Shown here: positions 1 to 10,749 of the stretch, one piece after another
Numbering within the stretch: position 1 is the first letter of the stretch
Layout of the letters: each line of letters starts with the position of its first letter
Source: a bacterium
GTDB lineage: Bacteria; Bacteroidota; Bacteroidia; NS11-12g; UBA955
Reading direction: 5' to 3'
DNA: 64,000 nucleotides
NCBI GenBank assembly: GCA_029945665.1
Contig: JAQSCZ010000120.1
Span: 1,618-65,617 of the forward strand
Position numbers and translations under genes: made by a program
The notes under the pieces: generated by a model
What the model was told of the DNA's origin: nothing
What the model saw: only the letters and a program-made list of their open reading frames with translations
Database searches by the model: none

Positions 1-1
1 A

Positions 2-181
2 GATATGCTCTATTTAGACAAAAAAACGATTGATGATATTGGACAGATTAGAGTCTTTAATGCTATCGGCACGCTAATGTATTCAGGTAATGAATTAAGT
101 ATTGATGTAAGTCGATTTCCATTAGGTATTTATTTCTTACATTGTAAAACGTCTATTTTCAAACTCGTAAAACTAGAATAA
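2..181 (+). CDS. 3' end of a T9SS type A sorting-domain protein (partial, runs off the left edge)
   Basis: Manual translation DMLYLDKKTIDDIGQIRVFNAIGTLMYSGNELSIDVSRFPLGIYFLHCKTSIFKLVKLE*; the ...IDVS..P.GIYF...KLVK tail is typical of a T9SS CTD. Confidence 0.8.
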   Translation, partial: DMLYLDKKTIDDIGQIRVFNAIGTLMYSGNELSIDVSRFPLGIYFLHCKTSIFKLVKLE

Positions 182-190
182 TAATTGATA

Positions 191-305
191 CTATTGCAAG
201 AAAAATGCAAGATTCTACTTTATCTTTTGCAAGAAATTTGTAGTGTAACAGTAAATTTGTATTTCCAAAAATCGCCACCTTCGCTAAGCGCTCAAGCCAT
301 TAAAG
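191..305 (+). repeat. attC-like cassette-boundary element A (left arm truncated, right core decayed to ATTAAAG)
   Basis: 191-291 matches 2368-2469 with 3 substitutions and 1 indel; lies immediately after the stop at 181. Confidence 0.8.
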
Positions 306-344
306 TGCATTTTATGAGACCATCAGGACAAACTGAAGCAGATT

Positions 345-1379
345 ATGAAAATTTTTCACGGTATAGCTAGAACAGCGTTTTGTATTTTATTTTCGACAAC
401 TTTTTTGAGTTGGAAAACGGAGAAGAAAGACAATGACTGGACAAATGATAAATTAAAAGGAGAAGTTAAATCTATTACAGAAAGGTATGTACTATCTATT
501 TCGCCATTCGACATATTCGAAAAACCTAAAGATTCTGCTCAGAAAAGTCAAATGAAGAAGGAAATGTTCTATGATCAAAAGGGCAACAAAATAGAATGGA
601 ATAGTATCAATAAAGATGGAAGCTTAGACTTTAAACGGAGATATAAATTTGATAAACAAGGAAATCTAATTGAACAGGGTAGTTATAATTTGGATGGGAG
701 TATCAAATATTTGTCTGTCTATACCTACAATGACAAAGGACAAAATATCGAAGAAGGGAAGTCATACCATTCAGCAGAAATTATAGAATCTAGAGGAACA
801 TTTAAATATGATGACAATGGCAATTTAATTGAATGGATTACATACAAATCTGATGAAGGTTTAATGAGTAAACTAACCTATAAATATGATGAAAGCGGAA
901 ATAAAATTGAATATATATATTTTAATTCTCGTGGAAATATAAAATTCAGATACACCTATAAATATGACAAAAGCCATAATTTAATTAGATGGGATAGTTA
1001 TGATTCTGTTAAACATTCGCTTGGAAAGGCAAGCTATAAGTATGATGATAAAGGAAACCAGATTGAATCAAAAAGATACAAATCAGATGGAAGTTTAGAA
1101 AATAAGGAAACCTCAAAATTTGATGACAAAGGAAATAAAATTAAATTTATCAGATACAATTCTGAGGGCAGTATAAATTATAATTGGGCATATAAGTATG
1201 ATGAATCAGGAAATATCATAGAATGGACTATCTATAATACTAAAAAAGATTCCAAGGCCAGATATTTAAAGTATAGTTATCAATATGATTATGATAAAAC
1301 AGGTAATTGGATTAAGAAAACTGAGTTTAAAAATGATGAGCTTATATTCATAATCGAACGTGACATTGTATATTTTTAA
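345..1379 (+). CDS. Exported YD-like repeat protein
   Basis: About 10 repeats of Y(K/T)YD(D/E)xGNxIE with roughly 24-aa period; N-terminal signal-like segment; C-terminal YDKTGNWIKK...ERDIVYF. Confidence 0.8.
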   Translation: MKIFHGIARTAFCILFSTTFLSWKTEKKDNDWTNDKLKGEVKSITERYVLSISPFDIFEKPKDSAQKSQMKKEMFYDQKGNKIEWNSINKDGSLDFKRRYKFDKQGNLIEQGSYNLDGSIKYLSVYTYNDKGQNIEEGKSYHSAEIIESRGTFKYDDNGNLIEWITYKSDEGLMSKLTYKYDESGNKIEYIYFNSRGNIKFRYTYKYDKSHNLIRWDSYDSVKHSLGKASYKYDDKGNQIESKRYKSDGSLENKETSKFDDKGNKIKFIRYNSEGSINYNWAYKYDESGNIIEWTIYNTKKDSKARYLKYSYQYDYDKTGNWIKKTEFKNDELIFIIERDIVYF

Positions 1380-1424
1380 TAGAAATTACATAGCATCTAA
1401 AAATAAAAAATAGATTAGAATGCC

Positions 1425-1555
1425 CAATAACAAAGTGCACTTGCGCAATGCTTGTTTTGTGGTTTGGAAAGTTCTGCTTCCCAACTACATTCGAATTTGA
1501 TGAAATGTTTTGCGGCTTCAACCTCCGCACTGCGCAAGCCCTCAAAAGGTTATGC
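1425..1555 (+). repeat. attC-like cassette-boundary element B (best preserved)
   Basis: CAATAAC (1425-1431) ... GTTATGC (1549-1555); inner inverted arms CTTGCGCAATGC (1440-1451) / GCACTGCGCAAG (1527-1538). Confidence 0.75.
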
Positions 1556-1599
1556 GTCAGCTTAAAAAACCGACAACAGAAAGAGAATAAAAAACAAAT

Positions 1600-1631
1600 G
1601 TTTCCAAAATTAGAAACTTTGAGTATCTTTG
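1600..1631 (+). promoter_or_regulatory. higBA promoter (-7 element TATCTTTG) with adjacent palindromic putative operator
   Basis: TATCTTTG at 1624-1631 fits the Bacteroidota TAnnTTTG consensus; GTTTC-N8-GAAAC at 1600-1617. Confidence 0.6.
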
Positions 1632-1657
1632 TGATGTTTAACAAATGACAGCAGTAA

Positions 1658-1999
1658 ATGAGATATTTTGAGACAAGGTTTATGGAAGAAGCAAACGAGT
1701 TTATTGCAGAACTTGACCAAAAGACTATCAAAAAAATATTTTATAACATTGATCTTGCAGAGCAGACGAATGACCCGAAATTATTCAAAAAATTACAAAA
1801 TGACATTTGGGAACTTCGGACTAAATTTGGTGGACTTCAAATTAGACTACTTGCGTTTTGGGACAAGACTGACAACAAACAAACTTTGGTAATTGCAACC
1901 CACGGTTTCATAAAGAAAGTAGACAAAGTTCCAGCAAACGAAATTGACCGAGCAGAAAGAATTAGAGATAAATATTTTCAGTACAAATTAAAAAATTAA
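1658..1999 (+). CDS. higB: Type II toxin, RelE/HigB (Gp49-like) family
   Basis: IWELRTKFGGLQIRLLAFW and ATHGFIKK..KVP..EI..A motifs; toxin precedes an HTH antitoxin. Confidence 0.85.
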   Translation: MRYFETRFMEEANEFIAELDQKTIKKIFYNIDLAEQTNDPKLFKKLQNDIWELRTKFGGLQIRLLAFWDKTDNKQTLVIATHGFIKKVDKVPANEIDRAERIRDKYFQYKLKN

Positions 2000-2003
2000 A
2001 AAA

Positions 2004-2330
2004 ATGGCAACCAAAGAAATCAAAACTTATTCGCTTACCGAAATGAAGGACAAGTATATCGGCAAGCTTGGGACAACTGACCGTGACGAGTATGAATACG
2101 AACTTCGCATGGATGTGCTTGGAAAAATGATTAAATCTGCAAGATTGGAACGCCGCTTGACACAAGAAGAACTTGGCAAGCTCGTTGGCGTACAGAAAGC
2201 TCAAATTTCTAAACTTGAAAGTAGTGCCAACAGCGCGACGATTGACACAGTTTTAAGGGTATTCAAAGCATTAAAAGCAGAGATTAATTTTAACGTTAAA
2301 CTCGAAGACAATTTTGTTAAACTTGCTTGA
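2004..2330 (+). CDS. higA: HigA-type XRE helix-turn-helix antitoxin
   Basis: IKSARLERRLTQEELGKLVGVQKAQISKLE HTH; starts 4 nt after the toxin stop. Confidence 0.85.
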   Translation: MATKEIKTYSLTEMKDKYIGKLGTTDRDEYEYELRMDVLGKMIKSARLERRLTQEELGKLVGVQKAQISKLESSANSATIDTVLRVFKALKAEINFNVKLEDNFVKLA

Positions 2331-2348
2331 CAGAAAAGAAAGCCGAAC

Positions 2349-2483
2349 CCATAACAGCCGTTTTGCGCTATTGCGAGAAAAAATGCAAAATTCTACTTTA
2401 TCTTTCGCAAGAAATTTGTAGTGTAACAGTAAATTTGTATTTCCAAAAATCGCCACCTTCGCTAAGCGCCCAAACCGTCAGCA
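2349..2483 (+). repeat. attC-like cassette-boundary element C
   Basis: CCATAAC (2349-2355) ... GTCAGCA (2477-2483, one change from GTTAGCA); imperfect inverted arms; near-identical to element A. Confidence 0.8.
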
Positions 2484-2561
2484 TTGATACTTAAAAAAAT
2501 CTCGGAATTTGGATGTTTGAGAAATATGTAATAACTTTATAGTCACAATTCAGACAAGAAT

Positions 2562-2806
2562 ATGGAAAATCCATCATCAAAATCGGAAATTCTAATGGAC
2601 TTAGATTAAGCAAGTCAATTCTCGAGAAATATAGTATCAATGAAAGAGTTGAAATTATTCTAGAAAAAGGAAAAATTATACTTAAACCAATCGAAATCCC
2701 GAGAAAGAATTGGGAAGCAGCCTTCCAAAAAATGCATTCGGAAAACGATGATCATTTGTTAGTAAACGATGTGTTTGACAATGAAACTTTTGTTGAGTGG
2801 AAATAA
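2562..2806 (+). pseudogene. mazE: MazE/AbrB-family antitoxin, frameshifted after codon 2
   Basis: ATG GAA AA, then in another frame SIIKIGNSNGLRLSKSILEKYSINERVEIILEKGKIILKPI..PRKNWEAAFQKMH...EWK*; IGNS.G.R is the AbrB-type motif. Confidence 0.85.
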
Positions 2807-3120
2807 TTTAGTATTCGATAGTTTTGGTCGACCTTGACCCGACTTTAGGCAGCGAAATAAAGAAGACAAGACCGTGTGTCATTGTTTAACCTGACGAGAT
2901 GAATAAGTATCTTAATACTATTGTCTTAGCTCCAATGACGACAAACATGAAAAAGTATCCTACCAGAGTAGCGGTTGAACATGATGGAAAAAAAGGAATG
3001 ATTGTTATCGACCAAATCCGAACAGTCGAGAAAATACAAATTCTAAAAGTATTAGGTAAACTAACAAAGTCCGAAATCAAGGCCTGTAAGGCCGTTCTTA
3101 AGGAAACATTTGTAGACTGA
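2797..3120 (+). pseudogene. mazF: MazF/PemK toxin with two in-frame stops
   Basis: GTG at 2797: MEII*YSIVLVDLDPTLGSEIKKTRPCVIV*PDEMNKYLNTIVLAPMT...DQIRTVEK; TAG 2809-2811 and TAA 2887-2889. Confidence 0.88.
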
Positions 3121-3130
3121 ACAAACCACT

Positions 3131-3263
3131 AATGCTATCAAAGGTTATAAAAAATGGCGGGTGAAGTACATGATTGAAAGCTTGTAACTCTCATCAGCAT
3201 TGGTGTTGGTTAACAAAAGACACCCTTGCAATCTGCCACAATTTATTCTCTCAACCTTTAGCA
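3131..3263 (+). repeat. attC-like cassette-boundary element D (degenerate)
   Basis: AATGCTATC (3131-3139) ... TTTAGCA (3257-3263); inner arms TGGCGGGT (3155-3162) / ATCTGCCA (3231-3238); begins 10 nt after the mazF stop. Confidence 0.6.
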
Positions 3264-3406
3264 ATTAAAAGTCGATTCATCCCCAAGAACAATGAGCATT
3301 AGCAAATCAAATCTTTTTTTCTCCAAAAAATGTTAAAAGGTAATTTTATAGTCATTTTTATTATATACTTCATTTGTTTTAAAAAAATAAGCCTAAGTTT
3401 GATAGT

Positions 3407-3817
3407 ATGAGACAATTAATTTATATTTTAGTGCTAGGACTATTACTGAGTAGTTGTAAAAAGTCCACTCCTTCACCCATTTCGGTGAATGATGGCACCT
3501 ATGTGGGGGAAGTTACAATGCTACCTTCAACCAACTATATTATGCTAGCTACTTTTGAAGTTAAGGCCATTTCTTATACAAAAATGAAACTATTATTTAG
3601 AAATGGTAATATTGTAGCTGAGGCAGATTTAAATGGTTCAAATTTTACGATCATCCCCACCAACTTCAAAATCAATGATGGTCAAACGGAATACCAAGGT
3701 ATAATTACAGGTGAAGGTTCATTTGGGAAAAACACAATAACTTTAAGATGGCATGAGGAGAGCTTAAGCGTTAAAAATTCTTACAGCGAATACAGCGGCA
3801 CTTTAACTAAATTTTAA
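3407..3817 (+). CDS. Hypothetical lipoprotein
   Basis: Lipobox LLLSS-C; TAAGTTTG promoter element at 3394-3401. Confidence 0.75.
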   Translation: MRQLIYILVLGLLLSSCKKSTPSPISVNDGTYVGEVTMLPSTNYIMLATFEVKAISYTKMKLLFRNGNIVAEADLNGSNFTIIPTNFKINDGQTEYQGIITGEGSFGKNTITLRWHEESLSVKNSYSEYSGTLTKF

Positions 3818-3830
3818 ACAGTTAGAGCAT

Positions 3831-4049
3831 TTAAAGTATCTCATCACCTTCATTCGAAAGCAACTCATTTTCCTTAGCTTCCATTTCAAGCTTTCTTTTT
3901 TTGATGAATTGAATCAAATAATCGACCCCTAGCATTATGGCAAAAATAGCCATAGCAATACCATAGAGTATTGAAACATCGCTGCTTCCTGGCGTACCTG
4001 CATAAAGAGAACTGGCACTTAACAAAAAGAATCCGAGTATTTTTTTCAT
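3831..4049 (-). CDS. Small membrane protein
   Basis: 72 aa: signal peptide, one TM helix, charged tail. Confidence 0.6.
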   Translation of the reverse strand: MKKILGFFLLSASSLYAGTPGSSDVSILYGIAMAIFAIMLGVDYLIQFIKKRKLEMEAKENELLSNEGDEIL

Positions 4050-4097: not shown

Positions 4098-4943
4098 CTA
4101 TTTCTTATTCGAGAAACTATGAAGCGTTTCTTTCTCTTTAGCAGTCAAACTTTCAATACCCTTTTTATTTATCTTATCTAATAGTTTATCTACTTCCCAT
4201 TCATTTTCGCGTTTCTTGGCATTGTACTTATCCTCGATTGTATAGGCTTGCTTGTTTGTTTTAAAAGGATTATCAACCAACATCCAGTTGGGTTTATAAA
4301 TAATAATAAAGATAAAAATAAGAGCGGGTACTAGAATTAAAACAATGGGTAAGCTATTTGTATTTAAACATTCGGGCTGTATGGCAATGGCAATTAATAA
4401 ACCCACCAAACCACCCCCTAAATGTGCTTCATGCCCAATGGCATCTGTTTGCGACTTAATGCCATAGATAGTGTATAGAACATACAATAAACCATAGATC
4501 CAAGCAGGCATGTAATAGGGTAAACCGAAAAAGCCTATCTCTAAACCCGGGAAAACTGCAATACTAGCAAATACAATTCCACAGATAGCGCCAGAAGCAC
4601 CAACAGCACTGTAATTACCATGGTGGCGATGAATATAAAGTGCCAATAAATTGCCACCAATTAAACTGGCAAAGTAAAGGAGTAAAAAATTTATTTCACC
4701 GAGTCCGTTTTCCAACACTTCGCCAAAACACCACAGACTCAACATATTTAAAATAAGATGTGGCCAACTTACGTGAAGAAAACCCGCTGTAACTAATCTT
4801 TTATAATCGCGATTGATTAATATTGGATCGACTTCGAAAAGGTAGGCTTGGAAAAATGTAAAATTAGTGAACCCTTTATAAGATATAATCAGGTTGATTA
4901 AAATAAGGAATGTACTAATTAACCCTATGTTTTCTGTTATCAT
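4098..4943 (-). CDS. Rhomboid-family intramembrane serine protease
   Basis: FLH...HLILNM, VGASGA, AHLGG motifs; C-terminal VDKLLDKINKKGIESLT tail. Confidence 0.92.
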   Translation of the reverse strand: MITENIGLISTFLILINLIISYKGFTNFTFFQAYLFEVDPILINRDYKRLVTAGFLHVSWPHLILNMLSLWCFGEVLENGLGEINFLLLYFASLIGGNLLALYIHRHHGNYSAVGASGAICGIVFASIAVFPGLEIGFFGLPYYMPAWIYGLLYVLYTIYGIKSQTDAIGHEAHLGGGLVGLLIAIAIQPECLNTNSLPIVLILVPALIFIFIIIYKPNWMLVDNPFKTNKQAYTIEDKYNAKKRENEWEVDKLLDKINKKGIESLTAKEKETLHSFSNKK

Positions 4944-5076: not shown

Positions 5077-7374
5077 TTGCAAAAAAATACCTTTATTCGC
5101 ATGACCATTATGTCCACTACAAAACAACAGCAAGATGCTTTAGATTACCATAGCATGGGCCGTCCCGGCAAGATTGAAGTGATTCCTACAAAACCTACGC
5201 AAACCAAACGCGATTTAAGTTTAGCCTATTCACCTGGCGTTGCCGAGCCTTGCCTTAGAATTGCCGAGAACCCTGAAGACATTTATAAATATACCGCCAA
5301 AGGCAATTTAGTTGCTGTAATTAGTAACGGTACGGCCGTATTGGGTCTTGGCGATATTGGCCCAGAAGCATCCAAACCTGTGATGGAGGGCAAAGGGGTA
5401 CTTTTCAAAATATTTGCCGACATCGATGTTTTTGACATTGAATTAAACACCAAAGATGTGGAAGGTTTTATTGCTTGTGTGAAAGCCCTTGAACCCACAT
5501 TTGGCGGCATCAATTTAGAAGACATCAAAGCACCAGAGTGTTTTGAAATTGAAACACGCTTGAGAGAGGAGTTAAAAATACCCATTATGCACGATGATCA
5601 ACACGGCACAGCCATAATAAGTGGTGCGGCCATGTTGAATGCACTTGAACTCGTAAACAAGCCTATAGATCAAATAAAAATGGTTGTAAATGGGGCTGGC
5701 GCCAGTGCCATGAGTTGCAGTAAATTATTTATTGCATTGGGTGTTAAAAAAGAAAATCTATTAATGCTTGATAGCAAAGGCACTTTAAATACACGAAGAA
5801 CTGATTTAGATAAATACAAGACTTATTTCGCTGTAGAAACCAACATTGACACCCTTGAGGATGCCATGGTAGGTGCCGATGTTTTTGTTGGTTTATCGAA
5901 AGCGAATATTTTGAATCAAGCCATGATCAAAAGCATGGCGAAAGATCCCATTGTATTTGCAATGGCCAATCCAGATCCTGAAATTGCCTACGAATTAGCA
6001 ATTGCTGCGCGCGAGGATATTATATTTGCTACTGGTAGAAGTGATTATCCAAACCAAGTTAACAATGTATTGGGATTCCCATTTATTTTCAGAGGAGCTT
6101 TGGATGTGCGCGCCACAACGATTAATGAGGAAATGAAATTGGCTGCTGTAAGAGCCATTGCTAGTTTAGCAAAAGAGCCAGTACCCGATTCAGTGATGAA
6201 AGCATACAACGAATCGAATGTTGAGTTTAGCAGAACTTATATTATACCAAAACCAATTGATCCACGTTTAATAGAAGCAGTAAGTCCGGCAGTAGCTAAA
6301 GCGGCCATGGACAGCGGTGTAGCAAAAAATCCAATTTTAGATTGGGACAAATACAAACTAGAATTAAGAAACCGACTAGGTCTTGATAATAGATTTATAA
6401 GACGAATAATGACGCAAGCCCGTCAAAATCCAAAACGTGTGGTATTTGCCGAGGCTGATAATGTAAAGATTTTAAAAGCTGCTCAGATAGCCAAAGAAGA
6501 AGGCATAGCCATTCCAATATTATTGGGTAACAAAGAAAAAATTACAGCCTTATTAGAAGAATATGCAATTGATTTAGGCAATGTTAGCATTATTGATCCA
6601 TTAATGGAGGATGCCAAACGTGAAGTGTATGGAGAAAAGTTTTTTGCTGGTCGCCAACGCAAAGGCATCAATGTTTATGAAGCGAGTAAATTGATGCGCG
6701 ATCGCAACTATTATGGATGCATGATGGTGAATGAAGGAGAAGGCGATGCTTTTATATCTGGACTTACCAAAAATTATCCTAAATCTTTGAAACCAGCCAT
6801 GCAAATTGTTGGTCGCGAGCAAGGCATTACAAAGATTGCAGGCATGTATATTATCATGACTAAAAAAGGACCCTACTTTTTTGCAGACACTACTGTGAAT
6901 ATTGACCCTACTGTTCAGGAGTTAATTGAGATTACAAAGATGACCCACGCAGAAGTAAAGAAACTTGGCGTTAAACCCGTAATAGCCATGTTGAGTTATA
7001 GCAATTTTGGCAGTGCCAAAGGCGAAGTACCAGTTAAAACAACCGAAGCAGTGGCCTACCTGCATAAGAACAATCCAGAGATTACAGTAGATGGTGATAT
7101 TCAAGCGAATTTTGCGATGAATAACGAAATGCTGAAGGAGAATTTTCCCTTTAGTACTTTAGTAGATAAAGAGGTGAATACTTTTATATTTCCAAACTTA
7201 GCAGCGGGCAATATTGCTTATAAATTCGCTCAGAGTTTTGGTGCTGCAGAGAGCATGGGCCCAGTACTATTAGGTTTCAATAAATCTGTACACTTTCTTC
7301 AACTAGGAAGCAGTGTAAGAGAGATAGTGAACATGGTAGCTGTGGCGGTTATTGATGCACATGGGAAGAAATAG
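5077..7374 (+). CDS. maeB: NADP-dependent malic enzyme with PTA-like C-terminal domain (true start probably 5101 or 5110)
   Basis: [44 protein letters not shown]; [12 protein letters not shown] in the PTA domain. Confidence 0.97.
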
Positions 7375-7382
7375 GCATGAAC

Positions 7383-7416
7383 AAAAAAAATGCGGTTTTT
7401 AAAGCCGCATTTTTTT
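7383..7416 (+). terminator. Intrinsic terminator after maeB
   Basis: AAAAAAAATGCGG-tttttaaag-CCGCATTTTTTT hairpin with U tract. Confidence 0.8.
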
Positions 7417-7464
7417 AAATAATTAATATGAGTTCGGGTTAATTATATCAATTAATCCTGATGC

Positions 7465-8040
7465 ATCAAATATTTTAATCTTATCAATTTTCTTCTCCTT
7501 TAGCTTCACTGCGACTTCTTGGTTTGTTTGGGCATAAAGGAGACAAACCTAGCCAAAGGCGCTCTCATAAGCTTGCGAATAATAGTCTACTATGCATAGG
7601 AAATTTCAATTCATCTTCTCGCACAGGTAGGCCCTTCAACCCTGACTATGCATTCTTGGATTCAGACGCCGGTTTCGGTTCCTTAATATATTTTAACTTT
7701 ACTGACGTAATTCGGTTTAAGTATATCATTTAAATATAGTATATCAAATATTTTAATCACATTTATTTTCTTCTCCTTTTTGTTTGGGCAAAAAGGAGAC
7801 AAAAAGCCCACCACGCATATAAAATTTCAATTGGTCTTCACGCGCAGGCTCACCCTTCATCCCTGACCAAAATGAAATTTTTACGCATGCGTGGACCCAA
7901 CGCGCAGATCCTGCCTTCGATAAAAGTTGTACAATTTTAATAGGTAGTGGTTTTGGTTAAGGCTATTTTTATTTGCATAAATCTTCATCCCTGAGCAATT
8001 GAAATTTTTACGGATGCGCAGACCCAGACCGCGCATCCGT
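7465..8040. repeat. Three degenerate copies of a structured intergenic repeat
   Basis: Shared blocks ATCAAATATTTTAATC, TTTTCTTCTCCTT, TTTGTTTGGGCAnAAAGGAGACAAA, AAATTTCAATT, CTTCAnCCCTGA at about 7465-7646, 7743-7911 and 7983-8040 (partial). Confidence 0.75.
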
Positions 8041-8187: not shown

Positions 8188-10749
8188 CTACTTTACTTCT
8201 AAAGCTTGTTTAACAAGCAATACAATATAATTTCTATGCTCTTTGGTATCACCAGTAGATGTTAACAAGGCCGTTTGCATTTGTTTTTGAATGCTTTGTA
8301 ATTGGGCCGTTATTTTTGCTTTCGAAATATTATCATAAAAAGGATAGTCTAACGCTGCACTTAAATAGCCAATATATTCTATCTGCAAATTCTGACGATA
8401 GGTATTAACAGTGGTGGCCATATCAGCTTGAAAAATAGCGTTGGTTAAGTCTTTCATCATTTCTCCTAACTCATATTTATTGCCATATAGTTTACTATCT
8501 GTTAAACGTTCTAAAGTACTAGGGTGCAATAAATGCATTAGTACCGACCGCTGTATGTTTAACACTCTGTCGTGCAACTTAGGATCTTCACCAGTACTAA
8601 AGAAATTAAAACCTCTTCTTTGTGATTGTAAGTAGGCCGCCAAATCGGTTGGAACTTCTAATGCACTGGGTGCAAAAACAAGGTCAGTCAAGGCTTTCAT
8701 AGCAGCTTTTTGTGTCTCGTATGGAACAACAGTGTAAGGCTTAACTAAACTGTTCTGATTGCTAAAGCTTCTATCAACATATACACCTCCAATATAGCGA
8801 CTAATAACACCTGCTTGCACACCCCACTCACCAGTTAAAACAGCAAAATTGCTTTTTAATTCTTGGAAACTTCTATTGCCCTTGCCATACTCTGTCAACA
8901 AATTCGTTTGCAGGCTTTTTATCAAGGTAATTCTATCTTTTGCATAACCTACAGCATCGTTACTCATATCGCCAATCATTACACGAGGATCAATGGCTTT
9001 ACCTGGACTTCGCATATCATCGGCATCGTTACCAAAAGCCAAATCAGGCTCGGTACTGCGCATTAATATTTTTTCTCTGCGGGACAAATCAGCAGCCGCA
9101 TCACTCTCTTCATAATACCCAAACTCTATGGCCCATAAATCGTAAGGACCTGGCTTATCCGTATAATATTGGCATTTAACACCTTTTTTATTACTGAAAT
9201 TAACGGCAGGATAATCCATGACACTACCAATTAATCCTTCACTACTGGTTTTAGCCATGTCGTATAATTCGGCCGGTGAATGCAATTGGGTTGCTTTCAT
9301 GTTGTGATTTAAACCCAATGTATGACCGACTTCGTGCAAGACTAAATAATACAAAGATTCCTTTAAATAAGTATCAACCTCTACCTGACTAGCGCCATTC
9401 ATGGCCAATATTTGCAACCCTAATAAATTTTGTGAGTGCATGTAATCACCTGCCTCACAGGCTGAGTGATTGCCTTCTGCAATCTCATTGTTCAACCAGT
9501 CCATACCAGCCTTGTCAAATACCTTTTGTGACTTTATACGGTTGGTTAGAAACACCCACTCAAACATAATATCAGCTCCTAAAATCTCACCAGTTCTTGG
9601 ATTCACAAAGCTCGGTCCATAACCACCAAATGGAGGCTCAGGACTACTGGTCCAACGCAATACATTGTATCTTATATCACCAGCATCCCATGTGGCCGTA
9701 TCGGGTTGTTCAAAAATTTGAATTGCATTCTTAAAACCTGCTTTTTCGAACGCGATGTTCCATTGCAGGATAGCTGCTTTAATCGTTGGACGCAATTCAG
9801 TTGGTGTTGTTTTTTCTATCCACCAAGTAATCGGTTTTATAGGCTCAGAAAGCGCTGCATTTTTATCCTTTTTTTCTAATCTCCAACGGTGAATTAAATC
9901 TTTAAAATTAATGGCATTTGTGGTTGTCATATCGTTAACTTGGGTCATAAAATAACCAATGCGCGGATCATCTAAACGCGCTTGAAAAGCATCTGTTGGC
10001 ATTTCTATAAAACTGTGCTGCAACAAAATTTCGACATAACGACCATCGGTAATTGCAGAGCTTCCAGTGCCTTTAGAAGCAGGGTCGTCATAAACATACT
10101 TAACAATAATATCAGTGTTTTCTGGATAATTTTTAACCGTGTGATATCGGGTTTTAGTTCTACTTAACATTCCCAAATTAAAACCAGGACCAAATGGATT
10201 ATTAGATGGTGTTTTTATTTGATACAACGTTTCGCTTAATAATAGATTATCAGCTTCAATGAGGTACTCTCCTTTTGCTTCATCCATTGCAACAATTTTT
10301 TCGCTGGCCATTACTGCATTGGTAATATTAGCATCTGCTGCTTTAGAAATATTATTACTTTTATCGAAATAAAAATTGGTATTTACCGTGGTGAATTCTA
10401 ATTGACTATAATATTTAGAGATTTTAAAAATTTTATTATCGCGGAAAGTCCCTTTGTTATGGCCGGTTGTAGAGTTGCCATTTTCGACATAACTAAAATA
10501 AATAAACTCTTTCTCTAATTGATCTTTTCTAATCAACATCATTAAGTTACCATTTACTGTATCGCGATACAAAGTGAGTAAGCCATCGATTTTTTTACAG
10601 CGTTTTACTTTGTCGGCAATGGTAGCCATTGTTGCTGCTGGTTTCGCCGGCTCGGTGTTGGCTTTATCGTCCTTTTTCTGAGCGAACACACTTGTAAAGG
10701 TGAGCGTGAAAGCTAAAAGAACAAGTAGTTTATTTTTCATTATGCGCAT
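8188..10749 (-). CDS. Exported zinc-dependent metalloprotease (DUF5117/DUF4953, EcxA-like)
   Basis: HEVGHTLGLNHN metzincin motif, SVMDY Met-turn, DPRIGYF, signal peptide. Confidence 0.9.
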   Translation of the reverse strand: MRIMKNKLLVLLAFTLTFTSVFAQKKDDKANTEPAKPAATMATIADKVKRCKKIDGLLTLYRDTVNGNLMMLIRKDQLEKEFIYFSYVENGNSTTGHNKGTFRDNKIFKISKYYSQLEFTTVNTNFYFDKSNNISKAADANITNAVMASEKIVAMDEAKGEYLIEADNLLLSETLYQIKTPSNNPFGPGFNLGMLSRTKTRYHTVKNYPENTDIIVKYVYDDPASKGTGSSAITDGRYVEILLQHSFIEMPTDAFQARLDDPRIGYFMTQVNDMTTTNAINFKDLIHRWRLEKKDKNAALSEPIKPITWWIEKTTPTELRPTIKAAILQWNIAFEKAGFKNAIQIFEQPDTATWDAGDIRYNVLRWTSSPEPPFGGYGPSFVNPRTGEILGADIMFEWVFLTNRIKSQKVFDKAGMDWLNNEIAEGNHSACEAGDYMHSQNLLGLQILAMNGASQVEVDTYLKESLYYLVLHEVGHTLGLNHNMKATQLHSPAELYDMAKTSSEGLIGSVMDYPAVNFSNKKGVKCQYYTDKPGPYDLWAIEFGYYEESDAAADLSRREKILMRSTEPDLAFGNDADDMRSPGKAIDPRVMIGDMSNDAVGYAKDRITLIKSLQTNLLTEYGKGNRSFQELKSNFAVLTGEWGVQAGVISRYIGGVYVDRSFSNQNSLVKPYTVVPYETQKAAMKALTDLVFAPSALEVPTDLAAYLQSQRRGFNFFSTGEDPKLHDRVLNIQRSVLMHLLHPSTLERLTDSKLYGNKYELGEMMKDLTNAIFQADMATTVNTYRQNLQIEYIGYLSAALDYPFYDNISKAKITAQLQSIQKQMQTALLTSTGDTKEHRNYIVLLVKQALEVK

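Follow-up and report, generated by a model that had tools for sequence, protein, structure and literature searches.

We analyzed a 64,000-nt stretch of DNA from a Bacteroidota draft genome (GCA_029945665.1, 126 contigs; labeled G000 below), comprising positions 1618–65617 of its contig JAQSCZ010000120.1 (C120), and we refer to this whole stretch, G000:C120:1618-65617, as the window. Positions 1–3263 of the window probably form the distal end of an array of gene cassettes that belongs to an integron-like system of the Bacteroidota, in which co-oriented genes are each followed by a long, folded site. The structure of these sites, their placement and orientation, the adjacency of a tyrosine recombinase to such arrays, and the boundaries of the cassettes were all observed directly. 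The system is apparently already known in part as rAID-1; what is added here is the structure of the site, its strand bias, and the cassette boundaries.

A first-pass annotation, made from the nucleotide letters alone, had described four co-oriented units in this region, each ending in an imperfect palindrome of 115–135 nt, and all four palindromes were indeed found, at 191–305 (s1), 1425–1555 (s2), 2349–2483 (s3), and 3131–3263 (s4), all on the + strand and 9, 45, 18, and 10 nt, respectively, past the preceding stop codon. Their ends had been described as TAAC-like and GTT-like: s2 is an intact 123-nt AAC...GTT site with clean TAAC...GTTA ends and a hairpin on the bottom strand; s3 is degenerate, with GTC instead of GTT at its right end; and s1, which is a decayed version of the s3-type site, no longer has the AAC of its left end and closes with ATT. 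The two palindromes that it had called near-identical, s1 and s3, shared 96% identity across 98 nt (repeat family D5), and the short motif they have in common was found again on three other contigs, within better palindromes. When scored with R1, a covariance model of the site that is described below, s2 reached 75.3 bits (E = 1.6e-14), s3 reached 25.5 bits (E = 0.005), and s4, the weak last site of the array, reached 29.7 bits (E = 5e-4, at 3136–3263), while s1 gave no match at E ≤ 1. A fifth, intact site was located approximately 1 kb upstream, at C120:468-600, after an open reading frame (ORF) with Reg_prop repeats; because of this site, we take the array to extend leftwards to the end of the contig, in keeping with the earlier remark that it runs off the left edge of the window.

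To describe the site, we aligned ten copies from G000 and four relatives, s2 among them, in bottom-strand orientation using MAFFT (seed alignment A1), derived a structure with RNAalifold, and built R1 from the same ten sequences. The A1 consensus contained 23 base pairs, 12 of which showed compensatory changes. In an alignment of 75 distinct sites, drawn from 29 loci, 92.9% of cells paired, compared with 69.7% in shuffled alignments and 37.6–55.3% when partners were slid, and 20 of the 23 pairs changed on both sides; none of 500 shuffles reached the observed values. The same stems emerged from two independent alignments, the MAFFT alignment A1 and an ungapped one in which 41 sites, each exactly 132 nt long, were stacked. 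Only three R1 matches (s2, s3, and s4) were found in the 64-kb window, all of them within the array, which, together with the covariation, places the palindrome pattern beyond chance. A cruder scan for TAAC/GTTA palindromes was over-strict and missed known sites, and the covariance model was used in its place.

From its AAC to its GTT the site measures approximately 124 nt (123–125 nt in most copies) and consists of a 5-bp AAC/GTT box, a stem of approximately 18 bp, and a central, non-palindromic region of approximately 70 nt. This central region is made up of phased direct repeats, with an autocorrelation of 0.518 at a lag of 37 vs. 0.26 in shuffles (z = 23) and further peaks at lags of 18–19 (z = 9–12). 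Two fixed pairs were G-U in 67 of the 75 sites, and a third was either G-U or G-C. Since these conserved G-T wobbles become A-C mismatches on the top strand, the stem can form only on the bottom strand, and R1 accordingly gave bottom-strand scores of at least 100 bits where the top strand gave at most 23 bits. These properties bear on whether the sites could lack any role in recombination and simply be intergenic palindromes of a passive kind, for example terminators or mRNA stabilizers. Their position 5–60 nt past stop codons is what would be expected of terminators, but the strand that folds is the antisense strand, the sense strand carries the A-C mismatches, unpaired direct repeats take up approximately 70 nt per site, the GTT and the AAC are the exact points at which homology between genomes is lost, and no Rfam family matched the sites, so that we consider this explanation very improbable. 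The Rfam search also answers the question raised in the first-pass annotation of whether an existing attC or Flavo-1-type model in Rfam covers the site, as none did; a weak Flavo-1 match at 4226–4335 (19 vs. 42 bits) lies inside the rhomboid gene and was dismissed as chance.

The hairpin bodies also contain short words of the TAAATTTG and TATCTTTG type (e.g., at window positions 235–262 and 2413–2440) that face the next cassette, as well as TAnnTTTG-like words. Such words resemble the Bacteroidetes -7 promoter box and may serve as promoters.

We next turn to where the sites occur. The covariance-model scan suggested by the first-pass annotation returned at least 29 copies on 14 contigs of G000 at E ≤ 1, a lower bound given that 150 of approximately 2,190 first-look candidates were scored, and sites were present in relatives too. 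For 74 sites we looked upstream for the first ORF with a length of 70 aa or more: it was on the same strand in 71 cases and on the opposite strand in none, the other 3 sites being at contig ends, and the median gap between ORF and site was 28 nt. When G000 was considered along with 40 relatives, 28 of these 41 genomes carried sites, 19 carried the recombinase described below, 15 carried both, 13 sites only, 4 the recombinase only, and 9 neither. A comparison of arrays between genomes showed that they have almost nothing in common except the sites.

The first-pass annotation had correctly noted the absence of a recombinase from the window and had proposed a genome-wide search for one. This search identified a 350-aa tyrosine recombinase encoded at the start of another contig of G000, C104 (9 kb), followed on the same strand by an array consisting of a three-gene STAND/TPR unit and then a 743-aa ORF, with a strong site after each. 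This enzyme was the best match in G000 to the IntI model TIGR02249, at 212 bits vs. a cut-off of 265 bits and with model positions 180–237 skipped, and it just passed the XerA_Arch model NF040815 (223.8 vs. 220 bits). Its catalytic and core-binding domains aligned end to end with XerA, while its alignment with VchIntIA fell into two pieces, with approximately 42 residues missing at the IntI insert. Its predicted fold (predicted local distance difference test score of 81) matched 2a3v (E = 5e-18) and 5hxy (E = 7e-17) best, and about equally well. The C104 recombinase is as close to XerA as it is to IntI. In 14 homologues the catalytic residues were conserved and the IntI insert was found in none, and all 14 have in common an extra N-terminal domain of approximately 60 aa with a beta-beta-alpha-beta-beta-alpha arrangement; a fold search with this domain gave no match at E ≤ 0.001, the best, no more than leads, being the HARP domain of SMARCAL1 (E = 0.49) and, at E = 1.2, the N-terminus of XPB. 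The family is large, with at least 7,998 members at E ≤ 1e-30 (7,998 of the 8,000 candidates scored), and NCBI names its members “site-specific tyrosine recombinase/integron integrase”; the closest named relatives of the C104 enzyme come from Flavobacterium species. Separate Xer-like genes, encoding products of approximately 305 aa, are also present in G000.

Because the recombinase lacks the IntI patch, the system is not a canonical integron. One could still suppose that a canonical integron is present and that its IntI gene merely went unassembled, since the genome is a draft in 126 contigs and the sites have AAC/GTT ends as attC sites do. Against this, none of the nine TIGR02249 matches in G000 reached the cut-off, and the recombinase that does lie beside arrays, both here and at 18 other loci, is without the IntI insert. 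We judged this to be the least probable of the explanations considered.

To examine the linkage between recombinase and sites, we scanned 80 loci around recombinase relatives in named genomes, using the upstream flanks as a control. This yielded 38 R1 matches in 20 loci, 35 of which (in 18 loci) were downstream of the recombinase gene and co-oriented with it; the remaining 3 were upstream and on the other strand, at two loci with short recombinases, L106 (283 aa) and L116 (305 aa). The 18 linked loci span several orders, and the carriers included Flavobacterium aciduliphilum, Algoriphagus ornithinivorans, Aquiflexum, Algibacter, Winogradskyella, Polaribacter, and metagenome-assembled genomes (MAGs) labeled Chitinophagales and Bacteroidales. 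In the order of the MAG labeled Bacteroidales, a recombinase homologue (36–63% identity) was present in 63 of 121 genomes and R1 sites in 74 of 121, and sites lay downstream in 2 of 12 short loci taken from this sample. Furthermore, a TATA-N(3-7)-GTTR motif was found 8–139 nt past the recombinase stop codon in 24 of 32 loci, whereas shuffles averaged 3.6 such loci and never exceeded 9, and this motif may represent a candidate attI.

These data also speak to the possibility that the sites are real recombination sites on which housekeeping Xer-type recombinases act, in the manner of dif modules or of XerCD-hijacking phages with folded DNA. Five genomes with 5–11 sites each encode only Xer-like proteins of approximately 30% identity, and sites were found in 13 of the 22 relatives that lack the recombinase. 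On the other hand, 35 of the 38 R1 matches lie downstream of, and co-oriented with, the special recombinase at 18 loci in several orders, a GTTR motif is conserved past its stop codon, and arrays without a recombinase are usual for classical integrons too (clusters of attC sites lacking integrases, CALIN), according to the available portion of the relevant survey (PMC9024848). We therefore regard action by housekeeping Xer enzymes as unlikely, though it is the alternative we take most seriously.

Several observations were made in passing at the recombinase loci. Full-length relatives at L079 and L117 lie on contigs of MAGs labeled Comamonadaceae and Undinarchaeales, for which either mis-binning or transfer is possible. 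In G308, which belongs to the Bacteroidales-order genome sample, at least 11 copies of a 300-aa recombinase relative (37–38% identity) occupy one strand over approximately 120 kb (G308:C1:1867082-1983115). Lastly, a 138-nt spacer plus site at 6160–6431 of L023 (C104) was 84% identical to 9285–9552 of L047 (G036:C12), a locus from a different family with unrelated preceding genes, and this spacer has CCAACGC-type motifs in common with the region just past the recombinase gene (C104:1205-1478).

The boundaries of the cassettes could be read most precisely from a unit that is identical over 596 nt in two species, G019 and G016, as 523 nt followed, after a 48-nt insertion in the hairpin loop of one copy, by a further 73 nt. 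On the upstream side, where the hairpins are unrelated, the identity begins 9 nt ahead of the site's GTT; on the downstream side it stops one base short of the GTT, and the flanks beyond are unrelated. As aligned, this shared unit, bounded by the GTTs of the two flanking sites, is the classical cassette unit. The 48-nt insertion falls in the site at 10748–10927 of L072 (G019:C5), which is otherwise identical to the G016 copy. Taken together with the large structured family that follows co-oriented ORFs and with the arrays that adjoin a tyrosine recombinase, these ends support the first-pass annotation in its view of the palindromes as recombination sites.

Older relatives gave a different right boundary. 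The higBA cassette of the window has counterparts with 79–85% DNA identity in the arrays of five other genomes, one of them from another family; by comparison, the rhomboid protein encoded beyond the array reaches only 51–58% identity in its closest relatives within the genus. Homology among these copies starts at the GTT, to the left of which are four different hairpins and, in L161, the end of an insertion sequence (IS), and it finishes at the ...CATAAC of the next site, to the right of which are six different hairpins. A second cassette family, from C81 and G003 (85% identity), likewise has a GTT as its left boundary and an AAC as its right boundary. Conversely, near-identical hairpins follow unrelated genes, both at s1/s3 and between C104 and G036. 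Genes and hairpin bodies thus appear, from these comparisons, to assort separately over time, which is not predicted by the one-sided crossover of classical integrons.

The same observations are what would be expected if the hairpin bodies were themselves small mobile elements, resembling miniature inverted-repeat transposable elements (MITEs) or repetitive extragenic palindromic (REP) sequences, that insert at TAAC|GTTA between genes, in which case the genes would not be cassettes: the same genes are flanked by different bodies on both sides, and near-identical bodies follow unrelated genes (s1/s3; C104 vs. G036). In the single recent transfer, between G019 and G016, however, an identical cassette moved together with its downstream body. 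The sequence TAACGTTA occurs 21 times in the genome vs. 137 times expected from base composition, its only copy in an array region is inside higA, and no empty TAAC|GTTA target was found in the arrays of G000. Moreover, the orientation is strict (71/71) and the sites adjoin a recombinase, unlike REP and MITE repeats, which are scattered in either orientation and have no tie to a recombinase. On balance, insertion of such elements is a quite unlikely account of the arrays.

The IS end seen at L161 has a parallel elsewhere. At L025 (G000:C81), an IS with a DDE_Tnp_1_6 transposase (114–950) abuts the GTT of a cassette start, and the same IS end adjoins the GTT before higBA in L161 (G043:C37), which suggests that the IS may target these sites. 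This arrangement is comparable to that of the IS1111-attC elements of integrons.

In favoring a cassette array with its own recombinase, we weighed a number of points that count against it. The recombinase and the array of the window are on different contigs. Folded singly, s1–s4 were no better than shuffles (z = +0.98 to -1.81), and because no single site beats its shuffles, folding energy alone does not show the structure; the pairing count over the 75 sites, for its part, was made on an alignment fitted to R1, which favors structure. The 71/71 co-orientation comes from arrays in which all genes are co-oriented, so that the sites are not independent. The sites are commoner than the recombinase, as 13 of 22 recombinase-free relatives carry them and 4 of 19 genomes with the recombinase have none, and another enzyme could therefore act on them. 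For the precise boundaries, the evidence consists of a single identical pair together with two cassette families that have diverged, and the older cassette relatives have kept their GTT...AAC boundaries and not the downstream hairpin. No recombination event was seen directly, and no public contig joins across a cassette. Finally, with regard to the comparison of cassette order between strains that the first-pass annotation had proposed, a strain with approximately 99% identity from another study (run X2) had the same cassette order over C120:593-8991.

This comparison with public runs was based on contigs, and the parts that these left uncovered are uninformative; the sole public run containing the whole stretch was a freshwater sediment metagenome. 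In run X5, contigs of other organisms have half a site in common and then diverge near the GTT (loose ends at 598 and 484), which is only suggestive, and a joint in the same run from 3185 to 3946 had a side of 26 nt and lay off the GTTs, and was not counted. Around the window array, relatives were too distant, with only the rhomboid gene shared, and for this reason no comparison of filled with empty positions could be drawn.

As for the content of the array, the gene calls of the first-pass annotation were largely borne out by Pfam. The first cassette gene, whose 3′ end occupies 1–181 (+; full ORF C120:638-1798), encodes a secreted protein with a weak type IX secretion system (T9SS) C-terminal sorting tail (Por_Secre_tail), its score of 17.8 bits being below the Pfam cut-off of 27. 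The second (345–1379, +) encodes an RHS/YD-repeat protein of 344 aa, hydrophobic at its N-terminus, and is nearly unique, with a single weak DNA match among 190 other genomes of the order. The higBA cassette (1556–2348, +) opens with a leader, GTTATGCGTCAGC..., followed by higB (1658–1999; Gp49) and higA (2004–2330; HTH_3). The mazEF-like pseudogene cassette (2563–3120, +) contains an AbrB-like antitoxin frame and a mazF that is broken by an in-frame TAA near 2887, leaving PemK_toxin pieces at positions 4–27 and 32–108; the mazE-like frame has neither an in-frame start nor a Pfam match. With three degenerate sites (s1, s3, and s4) and a broken mazEF, the end of the array is decayed, which agrees with its earlier description as a distal, ageing end, and this copy of the array looks inactive and ageing.

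Across G000, Pfam matches among 37 cassette ORFs or gene pieces included HigBA, ParE, the MazF remnant, ThsB-TIR, STAND NTPases, a PLD nuclease, and VWA/T9SS proteins, and many of these ORFs had no Pfam match. One two-gene cassette of G000 (L060, C53:20660-22479) was found again, with 68% DNA identity over 1.8 kb, at 1201–3007 of L106, where the counterpart genes lie between R1 sites in a Calditrichales MAG, a genome labeled as another phylum.

Beyond s4, the window continues with core genes, a rhomboid gene and a malic enzyme gene. The closest relatives of the rhomboid protein within the genus were 51–58% identical in four genomes and 37–42% identical in four more, and 23 of the 31 genomes of the genus gave no match at E ≤ 1e-30. 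Several direct repeats of 25–69 nt, with 76–96% identity and spacings of 221–278 nt, occupy positions 7433–7998, downstream of the malic enzyme gene and of a terminator-like palindrome at 7384–7416.

The closest described system is rAID-1, which was reported from gut Bacteroidales (Ross et al., 2019, bioRxiv 10.1101/471110; PMC12247911). According to the available portion of that paper, rAID-1 loci have a XerD-like tyrosine recombinase at the 5′ end and co-oriented orphan type VI secretion system (T6SS) immunity genes with repetitive intergenic sequences “reminiscent of integrons”, occur in 226 of 423 Bacteroidales genomes, are said to be restricted to that order, and were defined by a recombinase at least 44% identical to BF9343_RS08045, at least two co-directional downstream genes, and a GC content of at most 41% in these genes. 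In C104, too, the recombinase comes first, with co-oriented genes (two or more) and repetitive intergenic sequences after it, and the GC content downstream of the recombinase is 32.0%, although this last property does not discriminate here because the whole genome is at 34.9%. In contrast to the restriction to Bacteroidales given in the accessible part of the report, the present stretch was found in a freshwater sediment run and its recombinase has Flavobacterium relatives, which suggests a Flavobacterium-like host from such sediment. The cargo described for rAID-1 is orphan T6SS immunity genes, and the cassettes here carry toxin-antitoxin, defense-like, and unknown genes as judged by Pfam. 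A folded site, a strand bias, and a crossover point are not described in that part of the text, and supplementary figure S4 or the supplementary tables of the report may show its motif. The occurrence of recombinase homologues and R1 sites in the Bacteroidales-order genome sample would fit the two systems being one family.

With classical integrons, the system shares co-oriented cassettes, imperfect palindromes with AAC...GTT ends and a bottom-strand fold, one cassette bounded by the GTTs of two sites, recombinase-less arrays, and a content of toxin-antitoxin and defense genes. It differs in its recombinase, which is devoid of the IntI insert, possesses an additional N-terminal domain, and is encoded by a gene pointing into the array, whereas an integron integrase is divergent from the cassettes. 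In most copies the site has a fixed length, and it contains a central direct-repeat block where attC has a variable hairpin tip. Many cassettes hold more than one gene and span several kb, and hairpin bodies are swapped. The likeness to Xer/dif and archaeal XerA lies in the catalytic and core-binding domains, which align throughout with XerA, but tens of 124-nt sites in arrays per genome differ from a single 28-bp dif site. In the available portions of two sources, integrons are described as almost absent from Bacteroidetes apart from lone integrases (In0) and a single complete integron, that of Salinibacter (PMC9024848), and the Bacteroidota are placed among clades without integrons (2024 preprint, 10.1101/2024.07.02.601686); reviews count them among phyla with some integrons. 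Smyshlyaev et al. (PMC8138268), in the part accessible, call the insert “not fully conserved” in the integron-like subgroup. The first-pass annotation had considered such arrays poorly characterized in Bacteroidota; outside the Bacteroidales our literature searches found no account of them, and within that order the related rAID-1 was described in 2019.

With respect to the acting enzyme, the strand used, and the chemistry, we infer that cutting would take place at the AAC/GTT box, either on the bottom strand in its folded form or on an extruded cruciform, and that cassettes would travel as GTT-gene-AAC-hairpin-G units. Over longer times, exchange may take place on the AAC side too, so that hairpin bodies would be swapped among cassettes; the separate assortment of genes and hairpin bodies could be explained by exchange at the two ends of the folded site or by a reaction on a cruciform. 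A broader proposal, which we put forward as plausible though short of probable, is that the Bacteroidota have their own phylum-wide, integron-like capture lineage of which rAID-1 is a branch, in which a XerA/IntI-like recombinase without the insert would achieve synapsis through its N-terminal domain and the phased repeats of a fixed 124-nt site, and in which exchange at the AAC and GTT ends would shuffle genes and hairpin bodies separately, unlike in classical integrons.

If the system is active, it would constitute a parallel cassette-capture machine, holding toxin-antitoxin and defense genes, in one of the major phyla of bacteria living in soil, water, and gut, and one that standard tools apparently miss. 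Its activity would mean that the IntI insert is not needed for recombining folded sites, and would offer a natural comparison for the origin of integron recombination from Xer-type enzymes. For rAID-1, it would provide a mechanism and a far wider host range.

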